From the NCBI GenBank assembly GCA_965216155.1, contig CBDCFD010000005.1:149569-213568 (forward strand): a stretch of 64,000 nucleotides of DNA. The letters run 5' to 3'. Under the pieces are notes generated by a model. That model was given only the letters and a program-made list of their open reading frames with translations, was not told the DNA's origin and did not search any database. Below are positions 23,178 to 40,716 of this stretch, piece after piece. The stretch is from Dehalococcoidia bacterium (GTDB lineage: Bacteria; Chloroflexota; Dehalococcoidia; Lucifugimonadales; UBA3495). The position numbers and the translations under genes are program-made. The number at the start of each line of letters is the position of its first letter. Position 1 is the first letter of the stretch.

Positions 23178-24406
23178 TTAACTCCGGCGACCCAGCAGCC
23201 GTGACAACTCCGGCATCGCCGGATGATTTGCAGACACGGCCGACGGCATGTTTTCATACCATTCCAAAAGTTCTGACTGGGGAAACTGCTGCGGCCATTC
23301 CAAATTGACCCGGATATGATTGCCATCAAACACCACCGCGCGCAAGTTAAACAGTCCAATCAAGTCTCGTAACTGCGCCCGGTCCGGGTATTTCAGGCTT
23401 TGGTAGTGTGCCAAGGTACGCGCGAGGAAGTCACTCGGGTCTACGGAAGGGCTGTCCAGCAGAGTCTCCAGAATTTGCAACTGCCGTTCCGCCAGGACTC
23501 GCCGCCTTGGGCTACGGAGTTGCCCGAACAAAGACCGCGCGCATTCCCGGAACAGGACCCGTTTATGGTTGACCAGAATTTCCCCTGCAACAGCGTTGCA
23601 TCGCTCGGTCACCGCCGACAGCGCAAACCGGAGGAAAGGCGTGAGGTCGTGTCCACACTGGCGGGACTCGAACAGGGCGCCCAGGTACTCCTCTTTGTGG
23701 TTGTAGTAGTAATTGGACAGGCTGACCATGACCCGGTCGTTGACGCTGGCCTTCCTTAGCATAAAGGCTTCCACGGCCCGGCGGTACGGCCATTGCCGTG
23801 GCCAAAGGGGTGCATTGCACCGATATGGTAATGGATGGCCATGGCCTGAATAATACCGTCGTGCTCCCGGAACTCCCCTCCGATGGCGTTGCAGAGGGCA
23901 TCAAAAGCATCCCGGCAACCGTCTCCACCCTCCGCGCCCCGGCAACGTGGCGACCCGAAGGTGACATTGTGACCGTGCCCCCGGAGCGCTCCGGGCCCGC
24001 AGTGGTCGTCTTCACAACCGGTAACGATGCGCCGGTGGACTTCCAGCACGAACTTACGATTGACGGGACGGTCCGAAGGCTGGGAACCTATCCATTTGTA
24101 GGTCGCTTCGGCAGCCCGTAACTGCCGCTGTGAGTAGGTCAAATCGGTACGGTTCTCAGCGTCGGGAGCCAAGGCTTCGTTCTCTTCTTGAGGGGTGAAC
24201 TCGGCCCCTTCAATGCGGGAAGTGCCGGCGGTCTCCAGCCGCAGTTGCTCTTGGTGCACCGTTTCAATCCACTGGGGCAGATAGGGAAGTTGGCGCAGCA
24301 CTCCCGCCGCGGTTTTAGCTTCTACCAACTGTTCCAGGATGGCAGCTTTATCGTAGTGGATCCACCGTTGGGGGGGCGCATAACGGCTGATGTTTGCCGT
24401 GGTCAT
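23178..24406 (-). pseudogene. Fic family protein, split by a 1-nt frameshift inside the Fic motif
   Basis: ORF 23756..24406 ends HPFGHGNGRTAGPWKPLC*. Shifting one base at about 23775 restores GNGRTARAVEAFML, which continues as ORF 23178..23774. Confidence 0.7.
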
Positions 24407-24538: not shown

Positions 24539-25342
24539 TTACCGGCCCTGGAACCAGGGGCGGCGCTTTTCTGCGAAGGCGCGGATACCGTCTTGAAAGT
24601 CTCCGGTTAGACCGATTCCCTGCATGGCGGTGGTTTCGGCGTCCAGTTGTTCTTCCAGGCTGGACTCCCACGCGCGGTCGAAGAGGGCCTTGACCCGTCC
24701 GTAGGCCACAGTGGGACCCTGGGCCAACCTCATGGCGGTCTCCAGTACGTGTCTGTCCAGGTCACCGGAAGGGCAGACCTGGCTGACCAGCCCGATTTCC
24801 AGAGCCCCGTCGGCGCTGAGGGGCTGGCTGGCCAAATAAAGCTCCATTGCCTTTCCGGCGCCGATCAACCGGGGCAACATGTAGGTAGAGCCGCCGTCGG
24901 CAGTTGCCCCGATGTTGGCGTAGGCCATCAGGAACCGCGCGGTGCTGGATGCGATGCGCAGGTCGCAGGCCAGCATCAGGCTGAACCCTCCCCCCGCCGC
25001 CACTCCGTCGATGCCGGCGATTACCGGCTTTTGCAGTCGGCGAATCTCCAGTACGACGTCACGGTGCAGCGCCCCGGCCAGGTTGTTGAGGTGTTGGGAG
25101 ATTTCTTCCGGGCCCCCATTTTCCAAGTGGTCCACGAAGTCCTTAACGTCTGCGCCGGAGCAGAAAGATCCCCCGGCCCCGCTGAGGACGACCGCGCGGA
25201 TATTCGGCCCGCGGCAGGACCGTAGGGCCTCGCCCAACTGGTCTACCATTTCGGGAGACAGGGCGTTGCGCGCCTCGGGACGGTTGAGCGTAACCTTGGC
25301 TACGCTGCCCTGGATGGTGAACTCTATTCGGTTGGACGCCAT
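24539..25342 (-). CDS. enoyl-CoA hydratase/isomerase (crotonase) family protein
   Basis: VTLNRPEARNAL and GAGGSFCSGADV motifs. Confidence 0.9.
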   Translation of the reverse strand: MASNRIEFTIQGSVAKVTLNRPEARNALSPEMVDQLGEALRSCRGPNIRAVVLSGAGGSFCSGADVKDFVDHLENGGPEEISQHLNNLAGALHRDVVLEIRRLQKPVIAGIDGVAAGGGFSLMLACDLRIASSTARFLMAYANIGATADGGSTYMLPRLIGAGKAMELYLASQPLSADGALEIGLVSQVCPSGDLDRHVLETAMRLAQGPTVAYGRVKALFDRAWESSLEEQLDAETTAMQGIGLTGDFQDGIRAFAEKRRPWFQGR

Positions 25343-25395
25343 TCTGCACCTCGATTGTTGGGGGATTGTTCGGCGGTTTGACTGTCCTGGCCGGC

Positions 25396-25752
25396 CTACT
25401 CCAGCAATGGCTCCAGCTTTTCCAGCAATTGTCGCACGTCGCGCAGCCCCGCCTCAATCATATTCGCGCTTTGCAGGTCTTCATAGAAGTTGACGTGCAA
25501 GCTGTTGGCGGTGTGGTAGAGGCTGAACAATTGGGAGTCCCCGGTTTCCGCCACCAGCGAGTCAATGACCCCGCTCAAGGATGGGTGTCTATTGTGCCGC
25601 CAACCCCTTTGTTCTGCGATTGCCTTAATCATCTGCGCCGCCGCCCCCCAACCCTTTTCCGAGGCTTGCCGCAGGTCACCATCGGCCAATTCCTCGAAGG
25701 CTTTGACGATGAGCTGTTTGCTTGCTTGGGCGTATACGATGTCCCTGTTCAT
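25396..25752 (-). CDS. PaREP1/HEPN-like helical protein, copy 1
   Basis: 118 aa. ASEKGWGAAAQMIKAIAEQRGWRHNRH...ANSLHVNFYE contains an Rx4-6H-type motif (RGWxHNxH). Paralogous to 27618..28007. Confidence 0.65.
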   Translation of the reverse strand: MNRDIVYAQASKQLIVKAFEELADGDLRQASEKGWGAAAQMIKAIAEQRGWRHNRHPSLSGVIDSLVAETGDSQLFSLYHTANSLHVNFYEDLQSANMIEAGLRDVRQLLEKLEPLLE

Positions 25753-25808
25753 ATTTTATCCTTACCGCTCCGAAGGTACGCGGCTGGGGACATTAAGCCC
25801 CAGTCGTC

Positions 25809-26024
25809 CTATTCCAGCAACGGCTCCAGCTTTTCCAGCAGCAGTTGGACGTCCTGGAAACCCGCTTCGACGACTTCGGGAGGGTCCCAATTCTCATAGA
25901 AATTGCTATGGAGGCTGTTGGCCACATGAAATAGGGTGATTAACTGAGTGCAGCCCTTCGGGCGGTTCAAGGTGACCTTGGCCACGCTGCCCTGGTTAGT
26001 GAACTCGATTCTATCTGATGGCAT
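25809..26024 (-). pseudogene. chimeric remnant: crotonase codons 1-22 fused to the C-terminal ~45 aa of a PaREP1/HEPN-like gene
   Basis: MPSDRIEFTNQGSVAKVTLNRP matches MASNRIEFTIQGSVAKVTLNRP of 24539..25342 at 19/22 residues. It is followed by GCTQLITLFHVANSLHSNFYENW...LEKLEPLLE. Confidence 0.6.
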
Positions 26025-26049
26025 CCTGCACCTCGTCGGTCTGCCGGGG

Positions 26050-27612
26050 CTACTCGCCGATCTCTTCCAGGTGGAAATCGGACACGGCCACCTCCGGGGC
26101 CCAGGTTACCTGGTCGGAAGACCAGCGGACTGTGCCCCGTTGATGGCCTGTAATGCCCAGGATGTTGTTGATGACCCGGAGCACGTTGTCATTCATTCGC
26201 AGGGTGTTGGCCCTGATGGGCGCGGCCAGTCTACCGTCTTTGATTAGGTATGAGTCTCCGACGACGGTGCCGCTGAAGTCGCCCGCCGTGATCCCGTTGA
26301 CGGGGTAGGTGTACCAGATCCGTCCTATGTAAACGCCGTCTCCCACCCGGCGGAGGAGTTCATCCGTGGAGAGGTCTTCCTGTCCCTGGACCACCAGGTT
26401 GGTGGGTACGACCGAAGGGGTAGAGGCGAAATCGCGGCCTCCGCCGTTGCCGGGCCGAAACCCGTTTCTTGGGGCGATGGCTCCCGAGATTGTGCGGGGG
26501 TCAACCCCCAGCTTTCGCCGTGCTTCAGAGTCGTTCAGGATTCGCTGATAATTGTAGTGGTCCGACATTAGGCCCGAAAGGACCCCGTTGGTTATCAGGT
26601 TGGTCCGGCCCGTTGGCAGTCCCTCGTCGGTGATTCTCTTCGAGCCCGCCAGATTCGCCGCCGCGCCGTCGTCGGAGATGGACAGTTGCGTCGAGGCTAC
26701 CTGCTGGTCGAGTTTGCCCATGAAGGGCGAAGCGCCAGCCCAAAACATGTCGAGGGAAAAACCTGGCAGCAAGATCCATTCCAGAATTTCCGCGAGCGGC
26801 TGCGGGCCGAGGACTACGCGGTAATCACCGGTGGGTATACGCACGCCGTCGATGGAGGCAATTGCGTTCCGGGCCGCCTCCGCCGCCGATTCCCCGCTAA
26901 ACTCCGCGAGGCCCCGGCTGACCGACCAGCCGCTGCCCTTGGCGGCTTGCGACTCGACCATCGCCGTTGCGAAGGACATCACCAGCGTCGATTCGTCGGT
27001 CTGTACTCTCGGCATGTGGGTGGACGCGACGGCCATCCTCTCTTGCAGGTAGACGAGGTCGCCGCCGAGGATTAGGCCAAGCTCGGCTATGCGCTCGGGG
27101 GACTCGGCCAGGCTGAGCACATTTTCCGATGCCTCGAAGGTCTCAAGGCCGCGCTCTAGCATGTTCCAGCCCGTTTCAACCAGCCGGGAGTTGCCAAGCC
27201 GCATTACGGCAGGGTCGTGGAACCGGACGTCTGGGCCGGTGGTTACGCGGGTCGAAGGCGGGCTGTCTTCCGGCCGGGGCAGTGAAACGAAGTCCAGGTC
27301 ACGGACGGCTCCGGACCGGGCTTTCGCCAGCGCGGCCTGGACTCCGGTCAAGGTCAAATCCACCGGTTCGTTGCCGAAACCCACCTTGGTCCCTTCGGGG
27401 GTCCTGAATGCAACCCGCAGGCCGATTCCATAGGACTCTACCGACTTTGGCTCTTCCACGCCGTTACTGGGGATGTTGGAAGTGTAGTTGAGGCGGACCG
27501 TAAGGTTTGTGTTGGACGAGGCGAACACCTCTACCTCCGCCACGTCCGGTTGGGCGGAGACGTAGGCCAGGGCCTCGCGGGTGGCGGTGCGTAGTTTGTT
27601 CAGGGGTATCAT
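26050..27612 (-). CDS. pmbA: TldE/PmbA family metalloprotease subunit
   Basis: 520 aa with PmbA/TldD-fold signatures (ESYGIGLRV, GRIWYTY) and no HExxxH. Confidence 0.85.
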   Translation of the reverse strand: MIPLNKLRTATREALAYVSAQPDVAEVEVFASSNTNLTVRLNYTSNIPSNGVEEPKSVESYGIGLRVAFRTPEGTKVGFGNEPVDLTLTGVQAALAKARSGAVRDLDFVSLPRPEDSPPSTRVTTGPDVRFHDPAVMRLGNSRLVETGWNMLERGLETFEASENVLSLAESPERIAELGLILGGDLVYLQERMAVASTHMPRVQTDESTLVMSFATAMVESQAAKGSGWSVSRGLAEFSGESAAEAARNAIASIDGVRIPTGDYRVVLGPQPLAEILEWILLPGFSLDMFWAGASPFMGKLDQQVASTQLSISDDGAAANLAGSKRITDEGLPTGRTNLITNGVLSGLMSDHYNYQRILNDSEARRKLGVDPRTISGAIAPRNGFRPGNGGGRDFASTPSVVPTNLVVQGQEDLSTDELLRRVGDGVYIGRIWYTYPVNGITAGDFSGTVVGDSYLIKDGRLAAPIRANTLRMNDNVLRVINNILGITGHQRGTVRWSSDQVTWAPEVAVSDFHLEEIGE

Positions 27613-27617
27613 GTCGG

Positions 27618-28007
27618 CTACGTCTCTGGTGTGACTGGACCCGGGGCATACTGCCCCAACATTGGTTCCAGCTTGTCCAGAAATAGACCAACGTCGTGCA
27701 GGGCTAGCTCTACCAACTCCGGGGGCAACCAGTTCTCGTAGAAGTTTGTATGCAGGTTTCCAGCGACTTGGAATAGATTGGCTACCTGGGTATCGCCGGT
27801 CTCTTGGACCAGCGTCCTCACGATTCCGTAAAATAGACGGTGACTATTGTGTGACCAGCCCCTGCGTTCTGCCACGGCCTTGAGCATTTGCGCGGCCGCT
27901 CCCCAACCCTTCTCCGAGGCTTGCACCACGTCTCCCTGTGCCAGTTCCTGAAACGCTTTGGTCAAGAACTCTCTGCTGGCAATGGCGTATCCATCGCGTT
28001 GATTCAT
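27618..28007 (-). CDS. PaREP1/HEPN-like helical protein, copy 2
   Basis: 129 aa. ASEKGWGAAAQMLKAVAERRGWSHNSH...AGNLHTNFYENW. A GGGAGGAG RBS sits 12 nt after the tldD stop. Its own stop is 5 nt before the pmbA ATG. Confidence 0.65.
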   Translation of the reverse strand: MNQRDGYAIASREFLTKAFQELAQGDVVQASEKGWGAAAQMLKAVAERRGWSHNSHRLFYGIVRTLVQETGDTQVANLFQVAGNLHTNFYENWLPPELVELALHDVGLFLDKLEPMLGQYAPGPVTPET

Positions 28008-28019
28008 TACTCCTCCCTT

Positions 28020-29588
28020 TTAGCCTGACCCCGTTAGGCGGGCGATCCCTCTCATGGTCGGCCCCCCGTTGCTCATACGCTTGGCCTGCATGGGCTGGCC
28101 CTTGCCGCAGTTGGGGATGGGGTTGACCCGCAGATCATTGCCCACCGCGTCGATGGAAGTGAAGTATTTGCGGGAGTCGGACGTAATCCCACCGTCGCGG
28201 TAGAGCCGCCCCAACTGGCCGTTCTCGACCTCGTAGATCCTGACCGCAGTGATGCGGAAATTTTCACGGGCCTCGGAGATGGATGGGGTGCGGTGACCCG
28301 CGATGTAGTAACCTGAGTCCACATCGGCGATTATGTCCGCCGGATCGCTCTCGCCAGGCGCGAAGATGGTGTTGGTCATGCGGACCAGCGGGACCAGGTG
28401 GGCATCGGTAGCGCGGGCGGAGCCGTTGGGGGCCACTCCCATGATGGATGCGGTCTGGCGGTTGTTCAGGAACTCTTCCAGTACCCCATTGCGGATTATG
28501 TATGCTCGATGGGGAGGCGTTCCCTCGTGGTCGTACCGGAACGAACCATAGCCTTCCATCAAAGGGTCGGAAAAGGCGCTGACCAGGGGCGAGGCGATCT
28601 GCCGGCCGACCTGATTGTCCTCAAGGGTGTTGAGGAACCAGGAGCGGCCGGCGTAGGCGGTCTCGTACTTCAGCGCGCGGTCCAACTCGGAGGGGTGGCC
28701 CACCACCTCATGCACCAGCAGGGTGTTGAAGTGAGGGTCGGTGACCACCACCACATCTTTGTCCGGTGGTCTTAATGGGGGCGCGGCCGCTACTTCAACG
28801 GCGTTTGCTCCCAATTCAGTGCAGAAGTCGACGAAGTTGGGCAGTATGATGGGACCGTTGTTGTAGCCCTCGGTCAGGATCTCCCAACCGCGCTGATGGC
28901 CGGTGAAATCGTACAGTTCGTACCCGCCCGCGTCTCCATCGCAGATGACGATTACGAACCCCTCGGTCTGGGCAAAGGACTGGTCGATGTCCGCCCCATC
29001 CGAGCTTAAATATAGCTCGCGGAGCAGGTATGTCACGGCGGAAGCGGCGGAATAGCCGATGCTGCCGCCCTGGCTGTGGGCCGCTTTGCAACCGTCCACG
29101 GCCATAGCGACCACGTCCTGAAGGGGGACTTCCCTGGGGTCGACTGTGAAGACGGGCGGCACGGTGTCCTGAGCGAGAGCCACAGGGGCTAACTCGGAAG
29201 ACGAAAGACTATCTCCAAGCCTTGCAAACCTGCCCCGTGCCAAATTTTTTAGCCTGGCGCTGGTCCTTGCCCGCTGATGGGCCTGCCGGATACCCTCCCA
29301 CACCACATCCTCGATGGTGGCGGCGTCCGTCGCGCCGAGGATACGGCCGTAGTATCCCGACGCGCTGGCCCTGGTCCCTGCGATTACCCGGACCCCGAAG
29401 TCGAACGAATAGTCTTCGGAGCTAGCCTTCTCGTTGCCGTTTTCCGCCACCGCGCCCTTCTCTTCCTTTACCTGAATGCGAAGGTCGCAGTACTTCAGCC
29501 CCGGCAGCCGCCTGGCCTGCTCAGTTACCAGCACGCCCAGGTTGGTCCGCATACGGTCGAGGATGCTTACAGTGATGGGTGATGGCAT
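28020..29588 (-). CDS. tldD: TldD family metalloprotease
   Basis: 522 aa with HEVVGHPSELDR (HExxxH) and the conserved C-terminal GKGQPMQ region. Confidence 0.9.
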   Translation of the reverse strand: MPSPITVSILDRMRTNLGVLVTEQARRLPGLKYCDLRIQVKEEKGAVAENGNEKASSEDYSFDFGVRVIAGTRASASGYYGRILGATDAATIEDVVWEGIRQAHQRARTSARLKNLARGRFARLGDSLSSSELAPVALAQDTVPPVFTVDPREVPLQDVVAMAVDGCKAAHSQGGSIGYSAASAVTYLLRELYLSSDGADIDQSFAQTEGFVIVICDGDAGGYELYDFTGHQRGWEILTEGYNNGPIILPNFVDFCTELGANAVEVAAAPPLRPPDKDVVVVTDPHFNTLLVHEVVGHPSELDRALKYETAYAGRSWFLNTLEDNQVGRQIASPLVSAFSDPLMEGYGSFRYDHEGTPPHRAYIIRNGVLEEFLNNRQTASIMGVAPNGSARATDAHLVPLVRMTNTIFAPGESDPADIIADVDSGYYIAGHRTPSISEARENFRITAVRIYEVENGQLGRLYRDGGITSDSRKYFTSIDAVGNDLRVNPIPNCGKGQPMQAKRMSNGGPTMRGIARLTGSG

Positions 29589-38279: not shown

Positions 38280-39803
38280 CTACGCGTTGGCGCAGTGTTC
38301 CACCAGCGCGTCCACGAGCCCTTGTACGGTATGGACCCGGGCGACCACGTCCACGCGCAACCCCAATCCAATGGCGGTGGCGGCGGTCGTGGGGCCGATG
38401 CAAGCGATGATACTCTGTTCCAGGGTCTTCCGGTCGCCGTCCAACATGTTCAACAGGTTTTCCACGGTCGAAGAACTGGTAAACGTGACAAAATCAACGT
38501 TTTGTTCCAGGGTGGACCGGGCTTTATCAGCCATTCCCTCTGCGGGGATGGTGCGGTATGCGGCTATCCGTTCCACCTTTGCTCCGCGCTCAGACAGACC
38601 GCGGGCAACGGCGTCCCGTCCAATGTCCGCTGCCGGTAGCAGCACAGGCACGCCGGTCCAATCGAGGTTTGCCAACTCGGTCACCACCACTTCGGAGACC
38701 GACCGGCTTGGTTCAAAGTCGGGAATGATCCCCCTCTGAGTGAGAGCGTTCCTGGTTGCAGGGCCGATAGCCCCGACGTTCAACCCACCGAAGGCCCGGC
38801 TGTCTTTACCCAGGAGTGTAAGGCGTTCGAACACCGCGTCGACCGCGTTAATGCTGGCAAATATGACCCACTGGAATTCGCCGAGCCGGGTGAGGGCCGA
38901 GTCCAACTCCGTGTAGTCTTCCAGGCCGACGGTCTGGATGGCCGGTATCTCAACGGGCTGGGCCCCAAGTTCCTCCAGCAGCAACCGGAATTGGGAAGCC
39001 TGGGTGCGGGAGCGGGTGATCAGCACTTTCTTGCCGAAGAGGGGGCGTTGGTCGAACCACGCCAACTCTTGGCGGAGTCCTGCCACCGGGCCAATGACGG
39101 CGGCCACGGGCGGCCTCAGTCCGGCTTCTTTGCCAAGGGTTACGGCGTTCTCCAGGTTGCCGGTGACAGTAGCCTGTTGGGGCCAGGTGCCCCACTGCAC
39201 CAGTGCAACCGGGGTCTCAGGGGGCATGGACTCGTGAATAAGAGTCTCCAGGATTGATTGGAGAGGCTGCCAGCCCATCAACACCACCAGGGTCCCGCCG
39301 GTACGGGCCAAGGCGTCCCACCTGATGACCGAGGAGTTGGGCTTGGAGGGGTCTTCGCTGCCGCTAACGACGGTGAAGGACGACGCCAACCCCCGGTGGG
39401 TTAGCGGTATTCCCGCGTATGCAGGAGCGGCGACCGCCGATGTGACGCCGGGCACGACCTCAAAGGGAATCCCGTTGTTGGCAAGGGCCAGGGCTTCTTC
39501 CCCGCCGCGGCCGAAAACGAAAGGGTCTCCGCCCTTCAAACGGACGACTACGTTGCCCGCCTTGGCCTCATCGACCAAAAACTGGTTTATCTCGCCCTGG
39601 CTCATGGCCTGCCGGTCCCGTTCCTTGCCAACGAACACACGCCGGACCCGGACCGGCGCCAAGTCCAGCAGCGCCGGGTCGAGCAGCCGGTCATACAAGA
39701 CCACCTGCGCCAACGCCAGGCAACGCGCCCCCTTGACGGTTATCAGGCCCGGGTCGCCCGGTCCAGCGCCCACGAGGTAGACTTTGCCAGCCAATTGACT
39801 CAC
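38280..39803 (-). CDS. uroporphyrinogen-III C-methyltransferase / uroporphyrinogen-III synthase fusion
   Basis: GTG start. VYLVGAGPGDPGLITVKG SUMT N-terminal domain plus a HemD-like C-terminal half. Confidence 0.9.
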   Translation of the reverse strand: MSQLAGKVYLVGAGPGDPGLITVKGARCLALAQVVLYDRLLDPALLDLAPVRVRRVFVGKERDRQAMSQGEINQFLVDEAKAGNVVVRLKGGDPFVFGRGGEEALALANNGIPFEVVPGVTSAVAAPAYAGIPLTHRGLASSFTVVSGSEDPSKPNSSVIRWDALARTGGTLVVLMGWQPLQSILETLIHESMPPETPVALVQWGTWPQQATVTGNLENAVTLGKEAGLRPPVAAVIGPVAGLRQELAWFDQRPLFGKKVLITRSRTQASQFRLLLEELGAQPVEIPAIQTVGLEDYTELDSALTRLGEFQWVIFASINAVDAVFERLTLLGKDSRAFGGLNVGAIGPATRNALTQRGIIPDFEPSRSVSEVVVTELANLDWTGVPVLLPAADIGRDAVARGLSERGAKVERIAAYRTIPAEGMADKARSTLEQNVDFVTFTSSSTVENLLNMLDGDRKTLEQSIIACIGPTTAATAIGLGLRVDVVARVHTVQGLVDALVEHCANA

Positions 39804-39837
39804 GCTCTCCTGAAATTAACCGCAGGGCGGCCGCGGG

Positions 39838-40676
39838 TTATTGACCTTCGGGCTGCTCTTGCCAGGGGTCTTTGCCGGTGAGGAAGGCCACGCGCCGGAA
39901 GATTTGCCGGGTGTCGTTCAGGACTTTTTGATAGAGTTCGTTCCGGTCGCCCAGAGGGGCGTATGGTCCATCGTATTTCAGCCTTCCGCTGTAGTCGTTG
40001 AGGCTATGCAGGGGAGACTCCAGCGGGTGGGTGAACCCCCGGTCGACCCGGCGATACGGATTTCCATGTCAACCAAGTCGTGGTGGTGCGGGTAGCGGTT
40101 TATGCGGGCCGAAATCAGGGCTTTCATCGCGTGTTCCAAAGTTTGGTGGGCCTGCTGGCCTACCATGATGCCCGTGCCGCGATTGTCTATGATCACGCGC
40201 AGCGCGTGGAGGTGCGACCTGGTATGGTAGCATCGCTGGTCGGTAACGCTCCACTCGGCGGAATAGTCCTCGTCGTCGTTGGGATATTCGTCCCCGGCGG
40301 GCCGGCCGTCCATCGTAATGCCTTCCTCTGACGCTATCGCGGCCACGCTGTTAATGCTGCGCCGCATCCGGTCGAACTCTTCGGGAGTAAACCAGATGAA
40401 ATCCACAGGAACGAACATCCCGTAAAGCGCTTTGACCTTTGCGTCGGCGGCGCGCCGGGCTTTATCCCGTATTTCGTCATCTTGCCAGCGGGGGTGGACG
40501 AGGAGAATATCCAGGTCGGAATCCTTATGATAGTCGCCCCGCGCCCGCGAGCCGAACAGGATAACGTCCTCGGCAGCCGTATCCCGCAACACGGCCTGGC
40601 CGACGGCCAGTGCGTTGCCATCGTATTGGCCGGGGCTTGCGTCTGCCAGGTAGACTTTGCCTGCCAACTGGTTCAT
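39838..40676 (-). pseudogene. fused MNT nucleotidyltransferase-HEPN protein; its first 11 codons copy cobA; frameshifted near the 3' end
   Basis: LFGSRARGD...DSDLDILLV is the MNT part and ARINRYPHHHDL is the HEPN Rx4-6H. After a G-run (complement of 40047-40049) the sensible continuation VDRGFTHPLESPLHSLNDYSGRLKYD...FLTGKDPWQEQPEGQ* lies in another frame and ends at 39838. Confidence 0.7.
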
Positions 40677-40716
40677 GCTCTCCTATCAGAATCAGGCATT
40701 GCCGAGCATCTCACGC

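Follow-up and report, generated by a model that had tools for sequence, protein, structure and literature searches.

Introduction

Insertion with long target duplication is reportedly known for restriction-modification (R-M) gene units, from work of Nobusato et al. in 2000 (Gene 259:99). Here, an insertion at the 5' end of an enoyl-CoA hydratase/isomerase (crotonase) gene is described and compared with such cases. It is found in a stretch of 64,000 nucleotides, hereafter called the window, from a SAR202-type Dehalococcoidia bacterium (GenBank assembly GCA_965216155.1, contig CBDCFD010000005.1, positions 149,569 to 213,568 of the forward strand). The assignment to SAR202 follows the names carried by homologues. 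The inserted block contains PaREP1/HEPN-type sequences and has a copy of the crotonase translation start region on each side.

In Escherichia coli, the prophages e14 and phage 21 integrate at icd and carry a substitute gene end, by means of an integrase and a defined attachment (att) core at the 3' end of the gene. Homology-facilitated illegitimate recombination is said to have been described by de Vries and Wackernagel in 2002 and by Prudhomme et al. in the same year. Furuta, Abe and Kobayashi (2010, NAR 38:2428, PMC2853133) defined the class of insertions with long target duplication by repeats exceeding 30 bp, a small insert that carries no mobility genes and, in a relative, an empty site. 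They also reported gene fusions at such junctions and proposed a cycle in which the units insert, amplify by way of the repeats and are released. For the T6SS (type VI secretion system) effector-immunity arrays in Vibrio cholerae, in which displaced genes are found with 3' remnants, homology-facilitated illegitimate recombination was the mechanism invoked (Kirchberger et al. 2017, PMC5361080). PaREP1 has been reported as a HEPN-T family of archaea which occurs in tandem, and in which the Arg of the Rx4-6H motif is missing and the His is kept (PMC3710099, 2013).

An earlier sequence-only reading of the window had interpreted the locus as the footprint of an insertion or recombination event at the crotonase start. 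The observation is real, and the interpretation was supported and is essentially right. We favour, on balance, an insertion specific to this lineage, which took place at the 5' end of the crotonase gene without a transposase and left the footprint of an insertion with long target duplication.

Results

Duplicated start region and chimeric open reading frame

A repeat search detected an ungapped direct repeat of 81 nucleotides (Table 1), with 63 of the 81 positions identical (78%) and the copies 682 nucleotides apart, and a MAFFT alignment of the two copies left the register unchanged. The diverged duplication, which the sequence-only reading had put at 78 nucleotides, is thus slightly longer by formal alignment, and has a genome-wide E value of 3e-12. 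When the 5' part of the upstream open reading frame (ORF) was compared by blastn with the whole 4.5-Mb genome, the crotonase start was the only other match (79 nucleotides, 79.7%, E 3e-12). The genome has approximately 20 crotonase paralogues, none of which matched this 5' part, and a paralogue was rejected as the source of the copied start. The repeat spans CGAGGTGCAG, including the GAGGTG ribosome-binding site (RBS), the ATG and codons 1-22, an extent already given in the sequence-only reading. Codons 1-22 read MPSDRIEFTNQGSVAKVTLNRP in the upstream copy and MASNRIEFTIQGSVAKVTLNRP in the crotonase.

The upstream copy heads an intact ORF corresponding to 71 amino acids, in frame with the C-terminal part of a PaREP1 gene. 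Residues ~27-71 of this chimera matched positions 66-117 of the PaREP1 profile (67 bits, E 2e-19), so that the proposed in-frame fusion to a PaREP1/HEPN C-terminus was upheld. The fusion junction could be narrowed to codons 23-26 (K-G-C-T). Nearly all family-conserved residues of the PaREP1 tail are kept (LHxNFYE, LEKLEPLL), and the profile match, together with the helix model of the neighbouring PaREP1 gene PaREP_B, indicates that the chimera retains only helices H4-H5, including the conserved His in LHxNFYE. No Pfam match was obtained for the chimera at E 0.01, its PaREP1 domain being incomplete with only H4-H5. Nor is it a protein of the crotonase fold with oxyanion-hole segments: the part derived from the crotonase comprises the first 22 residues only. 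Its single-sequence fold was of low confidence (predicted local distance difference test, pLDDT, 60) and consisted of a beta-hairpin and two helices.

The tail also aligns with the C-terminus of the 118-amino acid PaREP_B, as had been claimed, but the special closeness to PaREP_B that was implied did not hold, as the identity was 51% to PaREP_B versus 58% to PaREP_A, the resident PaREP1 gene between tldD and pmbA. In a collection of 5.8 billion protein clusters the best match to the tail was at most 71% identical, and no further copy of the chimera was present among these 5.8e9 clusters. The ORF is probably translated, judging from its native RBS and the lack of a terminator nearby; a scan of the minus strand from pmbA to the crotonase found no terminator. 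It is most likely a by-product, lacking the HEPN helices H1-H3.

The suggestion that the event let both the incoming and the host gene keep a functional start is supported with two qualifications. The captured start drives only the truncated PaREP1 remnant, and the intact PaREP_B uses its own AAGGA-N8-ATG start. The start that now serves the crotonase was brought by the incoming block.

Empty site in the closest relatives

Crotonase orthologues were found in 37 of 61 relatives. In the closest genomes of the same genus (G001, G003 and G005, hereafter class I) the gene order is ilvD-like, tldD, PaREP1, pmbA, crotonase and a convergent mutS2, and the chimera, PaREP_B and a Fic gene found in the window are all absent from these loci. 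In the window every gene from tldD to the crotonase is on the minus strand, according to the ORF list and Pfam. The amino acid identity to the class I orthologues is 89% for tldD, which is at the equivalent position, 77-79% for PaREP_A and 84-86% for pmbA; the position of PaREP_A between tldD and pmbA is also occupied in other genera.

In class I the crotonase ATG follows the conserved GGCGAG codons of pmbA at 28 nucleotides, and in the window the ATG of the chimera follows them at the same distance. The first 13 nucleotides of the chimera (ATGCCATCAGATA) are identical to the class I crotonase start, as are 57 of the 66 coding nucleotides of the upstream copy. The equal spacing and the identical first 13 nucleotides show that the start of the chimera is the resident junction, in agreement with the earlier proposal that the pmbA-crotonase junction had been preserved there. 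Since pmbA is directly 5' of the crotonase in class I and in approximately 13 of 29 other family loci, this order is the ancestral arrangement, with the crotonase following pmbA at 25-28 nucleotides. The comparison with genomes having pmbA directly before the crotonase, which had been suggested as a check, accordingly gave three genomes with an empty site, and a block placed within the crotonase 5' end with a start on both sides was established, as class I lacks the 601 bp. The insertion consists of these 601 bp and a second start region. The block comprises the 3' half of a PaREP1 gene, a spacer, the complete PaREP1 gene PaREP_B and a second spacer, and no integrase, transposase or other mobile-element gene was found in or beside it in the ORF list or with Pfam.

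The same gene order bears on a local tandem duplication, in which a segment beginning mid-way in a PaREP1 gene and ending at codon 22 of the crotonase would have been copied and the extra copies later deleted. Such an event yields exactly the observed junction of crotonase codon 22 with mid-PaREP1, and tandem PaREP1 arrays are known, with three genes in G026 and five to six at C5:461107-463102 of the genome under study (G000). It predicts, however, a full PaREP1 gene upstream of the chimera, the opposite of the order observed, and needs an additional deletion which restored the pmbA-start spacing to the base. Further, identity to PaREP_A is no more than 53-58% for the tail and PaREP_B, compared with 78% between PaREP_A and its orthologues in class I. 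This model was rejected on gene order, and we regard it as very unlikely.

In 29 other family genomes no PaREP1 gene was found at a distance of up to 1.5 kb from the crotonase, and no start duplication was found at other pmbA-crotonase insertions (G014 and others). The pmbA-crotonase junction varies in further ways without start duplication: in G014 (L038) and in a JGI contig (L091) a gene for a secreted, cohesin-like protein of ~250 amino acids is located between pmbA and the crotonase or upstream of the crotonase. On the other side of the crotonase, a Fic/DOC-family gene is present between the crotonase and mutS2 (23178-24406, minus strand), split into two ORFs that overlap and differ in frame (24406-23756 and 23774-23178). 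None of the six congeners has this gene, and their crotonase-mutS2 gap is ~20 nucleotides. With Fic and PaREP_B both lineage-specific, the crotonase is bordered on both sides by lineage-specific insertions of defence type.

PaREP_B and the PaREP1 family

PaREP_B matched PF05942 with 65.7 bits (cut-off 24.4) over profile positions 3-114 of 115. Its AlphaFold model (pLDDT 95) has helices at residues 3-23, 27-49, 56-70, 74-91 and 96-116, and template modelling (TM) scores of 0.81 to the Sulfolobus PaREP1-type structure 2q00_A and 0.89 to the HEPN protein 2hsb. Residue H86 in LHVNFYE is invariant across 50 homologues and aligns with the LHV of 2jpu/2q00. No MNT or other known antitoxin gene adjoins PaREP_B according to the ORF list and Pfam. 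No orthologue of PaREP_B was found in six congeners, 203 family genomes or JGI metagenome contigs, the best matches being 58-67% identical; those in the family are PaREP1 genes linked to tldD-pmbA.

PaREP1 matches numbered 42 in G000 and from 3 to ~30 in its congeners. At C5:461107-463102 of G000, five to six PaREP1 genes, some of them fragments, follow one another in tandem with a spacing of ~380 nucleotides. A PaREP1 gene between tldD and pmbA is kept in several genera of the family (L172-L175, in G212, G215, G144 and G026), and G026 has three such genes in tandem. In these genera a HEPN-T gene lies inside a TldD/PmbA protease operon.

Metagenome contigs with PaREP_B and the crotonase

Three ENA metagenome contigs (L087, L088 and L089), from the ENA samples ERZ23495128, ERZ6111260 and ERZ23495289, carry PaREP_B. 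The contigs L087 and L088, from two samples, are 99% identical to the window and run from 14 nucleotides 5' of the PaREP_B ATG into the crotonase, so that the PaREP_B-crotonase junction is confirmed by independent assemblies. They share a haplotype with five common differences from the window, and both end exactly at 25766. The PaREP_B copies on the ENA contigs were 98% and 75% identical to that of the window, the latter value being the protein identity of the PaREP_B-like gene of L089. The contig L089 is 81% identical to the window from the PaREP_B ATG (25752) onward, and its alignment stops at that ATG. The ends of L087 and L088 at 25766 and the stop of the L089 alignment at the ATG suggest structural variation just upstream of PaREP_B in natural populations.

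In L089 the PaREP_B-like gene is followed by a spacer of 53 nucleotides (42/53 identical to the window) and a crotonase starting ATGGCGTCCAACCGAAT, the same as the working start in the window. The first 17 coding nucleotides of the downstream copy are identical to L089 and the likeness covers the first five codons; from class I the downstream copy differs at 16 of 66 nucleotides. No homology to pmbA, to the chimera or to anything in G000 was found in the 386 nucleotides of L089 upstream of PaREP_B. A unit of PaREP_B, spacer and a crotonase beginning MASN therefore exists in another lineage without the chimera.

A fourth contig, L090 (ENA ERZ6104093, 1367 nucleotides, coverage ~3), is 99.7% identical to the window crotonase from nucleotide 38 into the Fic spacer. 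On its 5' side it carries a HAD-type hydrolase gene and then the N-terminus of another crotonase (MSALVLREDHEGVATL), joined at the conserved TLNRPEARNA motif. It may be a genuine recombinant, formed at the same hotspot, or else an assembly chimera of low coverage.

These contigs also bear on an artefact of assembly or sample, such as a chimeric read or a hybrid consensus of two species co-occurring in a metagenome-assembled genome (MAG). The G000 assembly consists of 7 contigs, with completeness of 91% and contamination of 5%, and is for these reasons probably a MAG, and both chimera junctions occur in this assembly only. Nevertheless, with an identity of only 78% and without long stretches of exact match, the copies cannot mislead an assembler. 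The two flanks show synteny with class I and the same degree of divergence from it, the fused parts are in frame and co-oriented at one locus, and the PaREP_B-crotonase junction was assembled independently in two other samples at 99% identity. A mis-assembly is, on these sequence features, unlikely, and we give an artefact in general very little weight.

Divergence of the two copies

The G000 sequence is ~80% identical to the class I orthologues at the nucleotide level throughout, with a proportion of synonymous differences of ~0.55. Between the repeat copies, differences were counted at 12 of 15.3 synonymous sites but at only 4 of 50.7 non-synonymous sites. The chimera copy has 9 differences in 66 nucleotides from class I and 16 in 66 from the crotonase start of G000 itself. 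Of the changes private to the chimera, four are synonymous and at most one is non-synonymous (hand count on the alignment; binomial p ~0.01 versus neutral), and because they are mostly synonymous, for the greater part of its history the chimera copy evolved as the coding start of a crotonase. Neutral decay since the split of G000 and L089 was rejected, as it would be expected to give ~25-30 changes in 66 nucleotides and a lost frame.

Two readings of this divergence were weighed: a young insertion, with copies that had diverged beforehand and came together through the DNA of a diverged relative, and an old event followed by purifying selection. In the latter, the insertion with target duplication occurred in place in the common ancestor of G000 and L089, the copies were identical at birth and have since diverged by 22%, the L089 lineage later lost the chimera, and selection kept the 71-amino acid product as a functional protein, for example a HEPN-fragment partner or regulator of neighbouring PaREP1 proteins. 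The PaREP_B-crotonase linkage is indeed old, as it is common to L089 at 16-23% divergence, and published long target duplications arise in place (PMC2853133). The ORF is intact, in frame and preceded by its native RBS, its conserved PaREP1 residues include the family His, V17 occurs only in the two G000 copies, and the MNT-HEPN gene at 39978-40676 likewise begins with a captured start, that of cobA. Yet the chimera lacks helices H1-H3 and is contained in no other assembly among the 5.8e9 protein clusters, and selection would have had to keep 22 residues from the beta-hairpin of a crotonase in a setting new to them. Moreover, at synonymous sites the copies (0.78) are further apart than the species (0.55), although a lower value is expected if the duplication postdates the class I split (p ~0.04), and the chimera copy is nearer to class I (9 differences) than to its supposed twin (16). 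An old insertion in place is considered rather unlikely, and the young insertion of previously diverged copies is preferred.

Other repeat-flanked modules in the genome

Self-comparison of G000, followed by ORF and Pfam checks, gave at least eight further small modules of toxin-antitoxin/HEPN type between direct repeats of 50-200 nucleotides, 77-98% identical (Table 1), and this recurrence speaks for the insertion favoured here. The first residues encoded by the MNT-HEPN gene in the window (40676-39978), MNQLAGKVYL, are a copy of those encoded by cobA, MSQLAGKVYL. At C6:492262 and C6:298687, at least, the repeats take in the start of the neighbouring gene. For the C6:492262 module there are relatives with a single target copy, but the upstream flank does not align, so that an empty site was not demonstrated. 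A genome-wide scan for candidate starts gave 175 local pairs versus 6 in a shifted control; these pairs are not a measure of start capture because they are mostly paralogues or internal repeats.

A site-specific integrative element, with the crotonase start as attachment site and a prophage-like substitute gene end, would account for the architecture, in which a displaced gene end, an insert and a substitute end of differing sequence follow each other. Against this, there is no integrase in or beside the block, the left end of the insert is a truncated gene rather than the end of an element, and the other repeat-flanked modules of G000 have unrelated repeats of varied length. We consider such an element extremely improbable.

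Table 1 Features of the tldD-crotonase locus (window positions) and further repeat-flanked modules of the genome
Feature	Position	Strand	Evidence or remarks
tldD, first gene of the conserved tldD-PaREP1-pmbA-crotonase unit	28020..29588	-	Pfam PmbA_TldD_3rd, E 2e-41
PaREP_A, resident PaREP1/HEPN gene (129 amino acids) between tldD and pmbA	27618..28007	-	Pfam PF05942, E 3e-19
pmbA	26050..27612	-	Pfam PmbA_TldD_3rd, E 2e-37
Ancestral pmbA-to-crotonase spacer, now pmbA-to-chimera spacer (25 nt)	26025..26049	-	Colinear with G001/G003/G005
Direct repeat, upstream copy: resident crotonase RBS, ATG, codons 1-22 and a few extra bases	25955..26035	-	
Chimeric ORF of 71 codons: crotonase codons 1-22, junction codons 23-26, PaREP1 helices H4-H5, stop	25809..26024	-	
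Fusion junction, codons 23-26 (K-G-C-T)	25947..25958	-	Alignments
Spacer, PaREP1 remnant to PaREP_B (56 nt)	25753..25808	-	Unique in the genome (blastn matches only itself)
PaREP_B, complete incoming PaREP1 (HEPN-T) gene (118 amino acids) with own AAGGA RBS	25396..25752	-	Pfam PF05942, E 4e-18
Spacer, PaREP_B to crotonase (53 nt), last 11 nt within the repeat	25343..25395	-	42/53 nt identical to L089
Direct repeat, downstream copy: working crotonase RBS, ATG, codons 1-22 and a few extra bases	25273..25353	-	
Enoyl-CoA hydratase/isomerase (crotonase), intact, 267 codons	24539..25342	-	Pfam ECH_1, E 1e-58
Inserted non-duplicated block (601 bp)	25354..25954	-	Absent from G001/G003/G005
MNT-HEPN	window 39756-39811 / 40629-40684		56-nt repeat, 77%
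PIN fragment and ORF of unknown function	C6:492262/493646 (to 493842)		197-nt repeat, 98%
RHH and ParE	C5:548016/548917 (to 549042)		126-nt repeat, 95%
DUF433 and DUF5615	C6:488410/489317 (to 489400)		84-nt repeat, 88%
MNT and HEPN	C7:1407783/1409344 (to 1409469)		126-nt repeat, 90%
DUF6883 and DUF4926	C7:1737448/1738236 (to 1738361)		127-nt repeat, 87%
Two Phd and PIN pairs	C6:1439723/1440623/1441422 (to 1441494)		Three repeat copies
PaREP1 gene at cofE start	C6:298687/299392 (to 299460)		69-nt repeat, 84%

Discussion

In the window, the upstream copy of the repeat is the resident crotonase start, which now opens a 71-codon ORF into a PaREP1 remnant, and the downstream copy is another version of the start, which travels with PaREP_B and keeps the crotonase intact. 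The block may have originated from a tandem PaREP1 array that was already located before the crotonase in a diverged relative, and it would have entered by recombination for which the start region of the crotonase provided the homology. The DNA could have been a linear fragment, homologous at one end and illegitimately joined at the other, or a circle that had been excised between such repeats and was re-integrated through one crossover in the start region. Most of the 22% by which the copies differ would then reflect the divergence of donor and recipient, and the insertion would be younger than it appears.

Several observations weigh against this preferred insertion of diverged DNA. A donor genome with a further PaREP1 gene (PaREP1x), PaREP_B and the crotonase in this order was not found, and L089 is unrelated upstream of PaREP_B and diverged from the window by 16-23%. 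Identity of the genome to class I is ~80% over tldD, pmbA, the crotonase and mutS2, a mosaic breakpoint is absent, and the crossover point is therefore not visible; scans of these four genes versus class I, and of the crotonase versus L089, gave no clear crossover point. V17 is common to both G000 copies and occurs in no other genome, which fits an in-place duplication or a later gene conversion. In the published cases the repeats are nearly identical, versus 78% here (PMC2853133). The independent assemblies cover the PaREP_B-crotonase junction only, both chimera junctions being from the G000 assembly alone, and the tests on the repeat copies all rest on 66 nucleotides, with p values of ~0.01-0.06.

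A broader reading, which we regard as speculative and improbable, is that PaREP1 and small toxin-antitoxin (TA)-type modules of SAR202 spread as recombinase-free cassettes carrying copies of host-gene starts, the repeats releasing a circle which homologous recombination re-inserts at the same gene in another lineage. If this were true, two diverged start copies would be left, the displaced start would express whatever is located at the edge of the cassette, and the HEPN fragment of 71 amino acids might act on its full-length neighbours. The 'virus-like life cycle' which the group of Kobayashi proposed for R-M units would then be seen in action for other cargo.

The movement of small defence and TA genes without transposases is poorly understood. 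The locus is a usable natural example, with an unambiguous empty site, a second lineage having the same pair of cargo and gene, and copies resembling different lineages, and it could serve to test if homologous recombination on a piece of the target gene is the way in which such units travel. The capture of the RBS and first codons of an operon gene for expression of an inserted fragment is also a simple route to small chimeric ORFs. In annotation, the 71-codon ORF should be labelled a fusion remnant, neither a PaREP1 gene nor a crotonase.

Compared with described PaREP1/HEPN-T proteins (PF05942), PaREP_A and PaREP_B are above the Pfam cut-off, have the 2q00 fold and keep the conserved His without the Arg of Rx4-6H, and the tandem arrays and the large lineage-specific expansion (42 matches in G000) also agree with the family. 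In contrast to the archaeal PaREP1 described, the expansion is here in a bacterium of SAR202 type, with the family also found inside a tldD-pmbA operon, and in contrast to a full PaREP1 the 71-amino acid chimera is a two-helix fragment of the domain.

As with e14 and phage 21, the incoming DNA brings a diverged end of the target gene, so that the gene is intact and the displaced end is left as a remnant; unlike in those cases a recombinase is missing, the end concerned is the 5' end and the insert measures 0.6 kb. Homology-facilitated illegitimate recombination appears to be the closest mechanistic model, having one homologous anchor and one illegitimate joint, as would apply here. The locus resembles the V. 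cholerae arrays in its truncated 3' remnant beside intact small genes and in the addition of foreign genes at a conserved anchor. It differs in that the illegitimate joint would lie within the region homologous to the anchor, so that the anchor start was duplicated and not replaced.

The operational features by which Furuta et al. (2010) defined insertions with long target duplication are found: direct repeats of more than 30 bp flank the insert (81 nucleotides here), the insert is smaller than 20 kb and has no mobile-element genes (601 bp here), and G001, G003 and G005 have a single target copy as empty site. The locus shares with the R-M cases a small unit of selfish type, a repeat length varying by site and a gene fusion at the junction. 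It differs from them in its cargo, a PaREP1/HEPN unit with one copy truncated, in the identity of the repeats (78%, versus usually more than 90%), in copies which resemble different lineages, the upstream one class I and the downstream one L089 in the first five codons, and in the target, which is the translation start of an operon gene whose resident RBS and 22 codons were captured. The locus is a well-resolved further example of a known mode of insertion, with an unusual cargo and a captured translation start.

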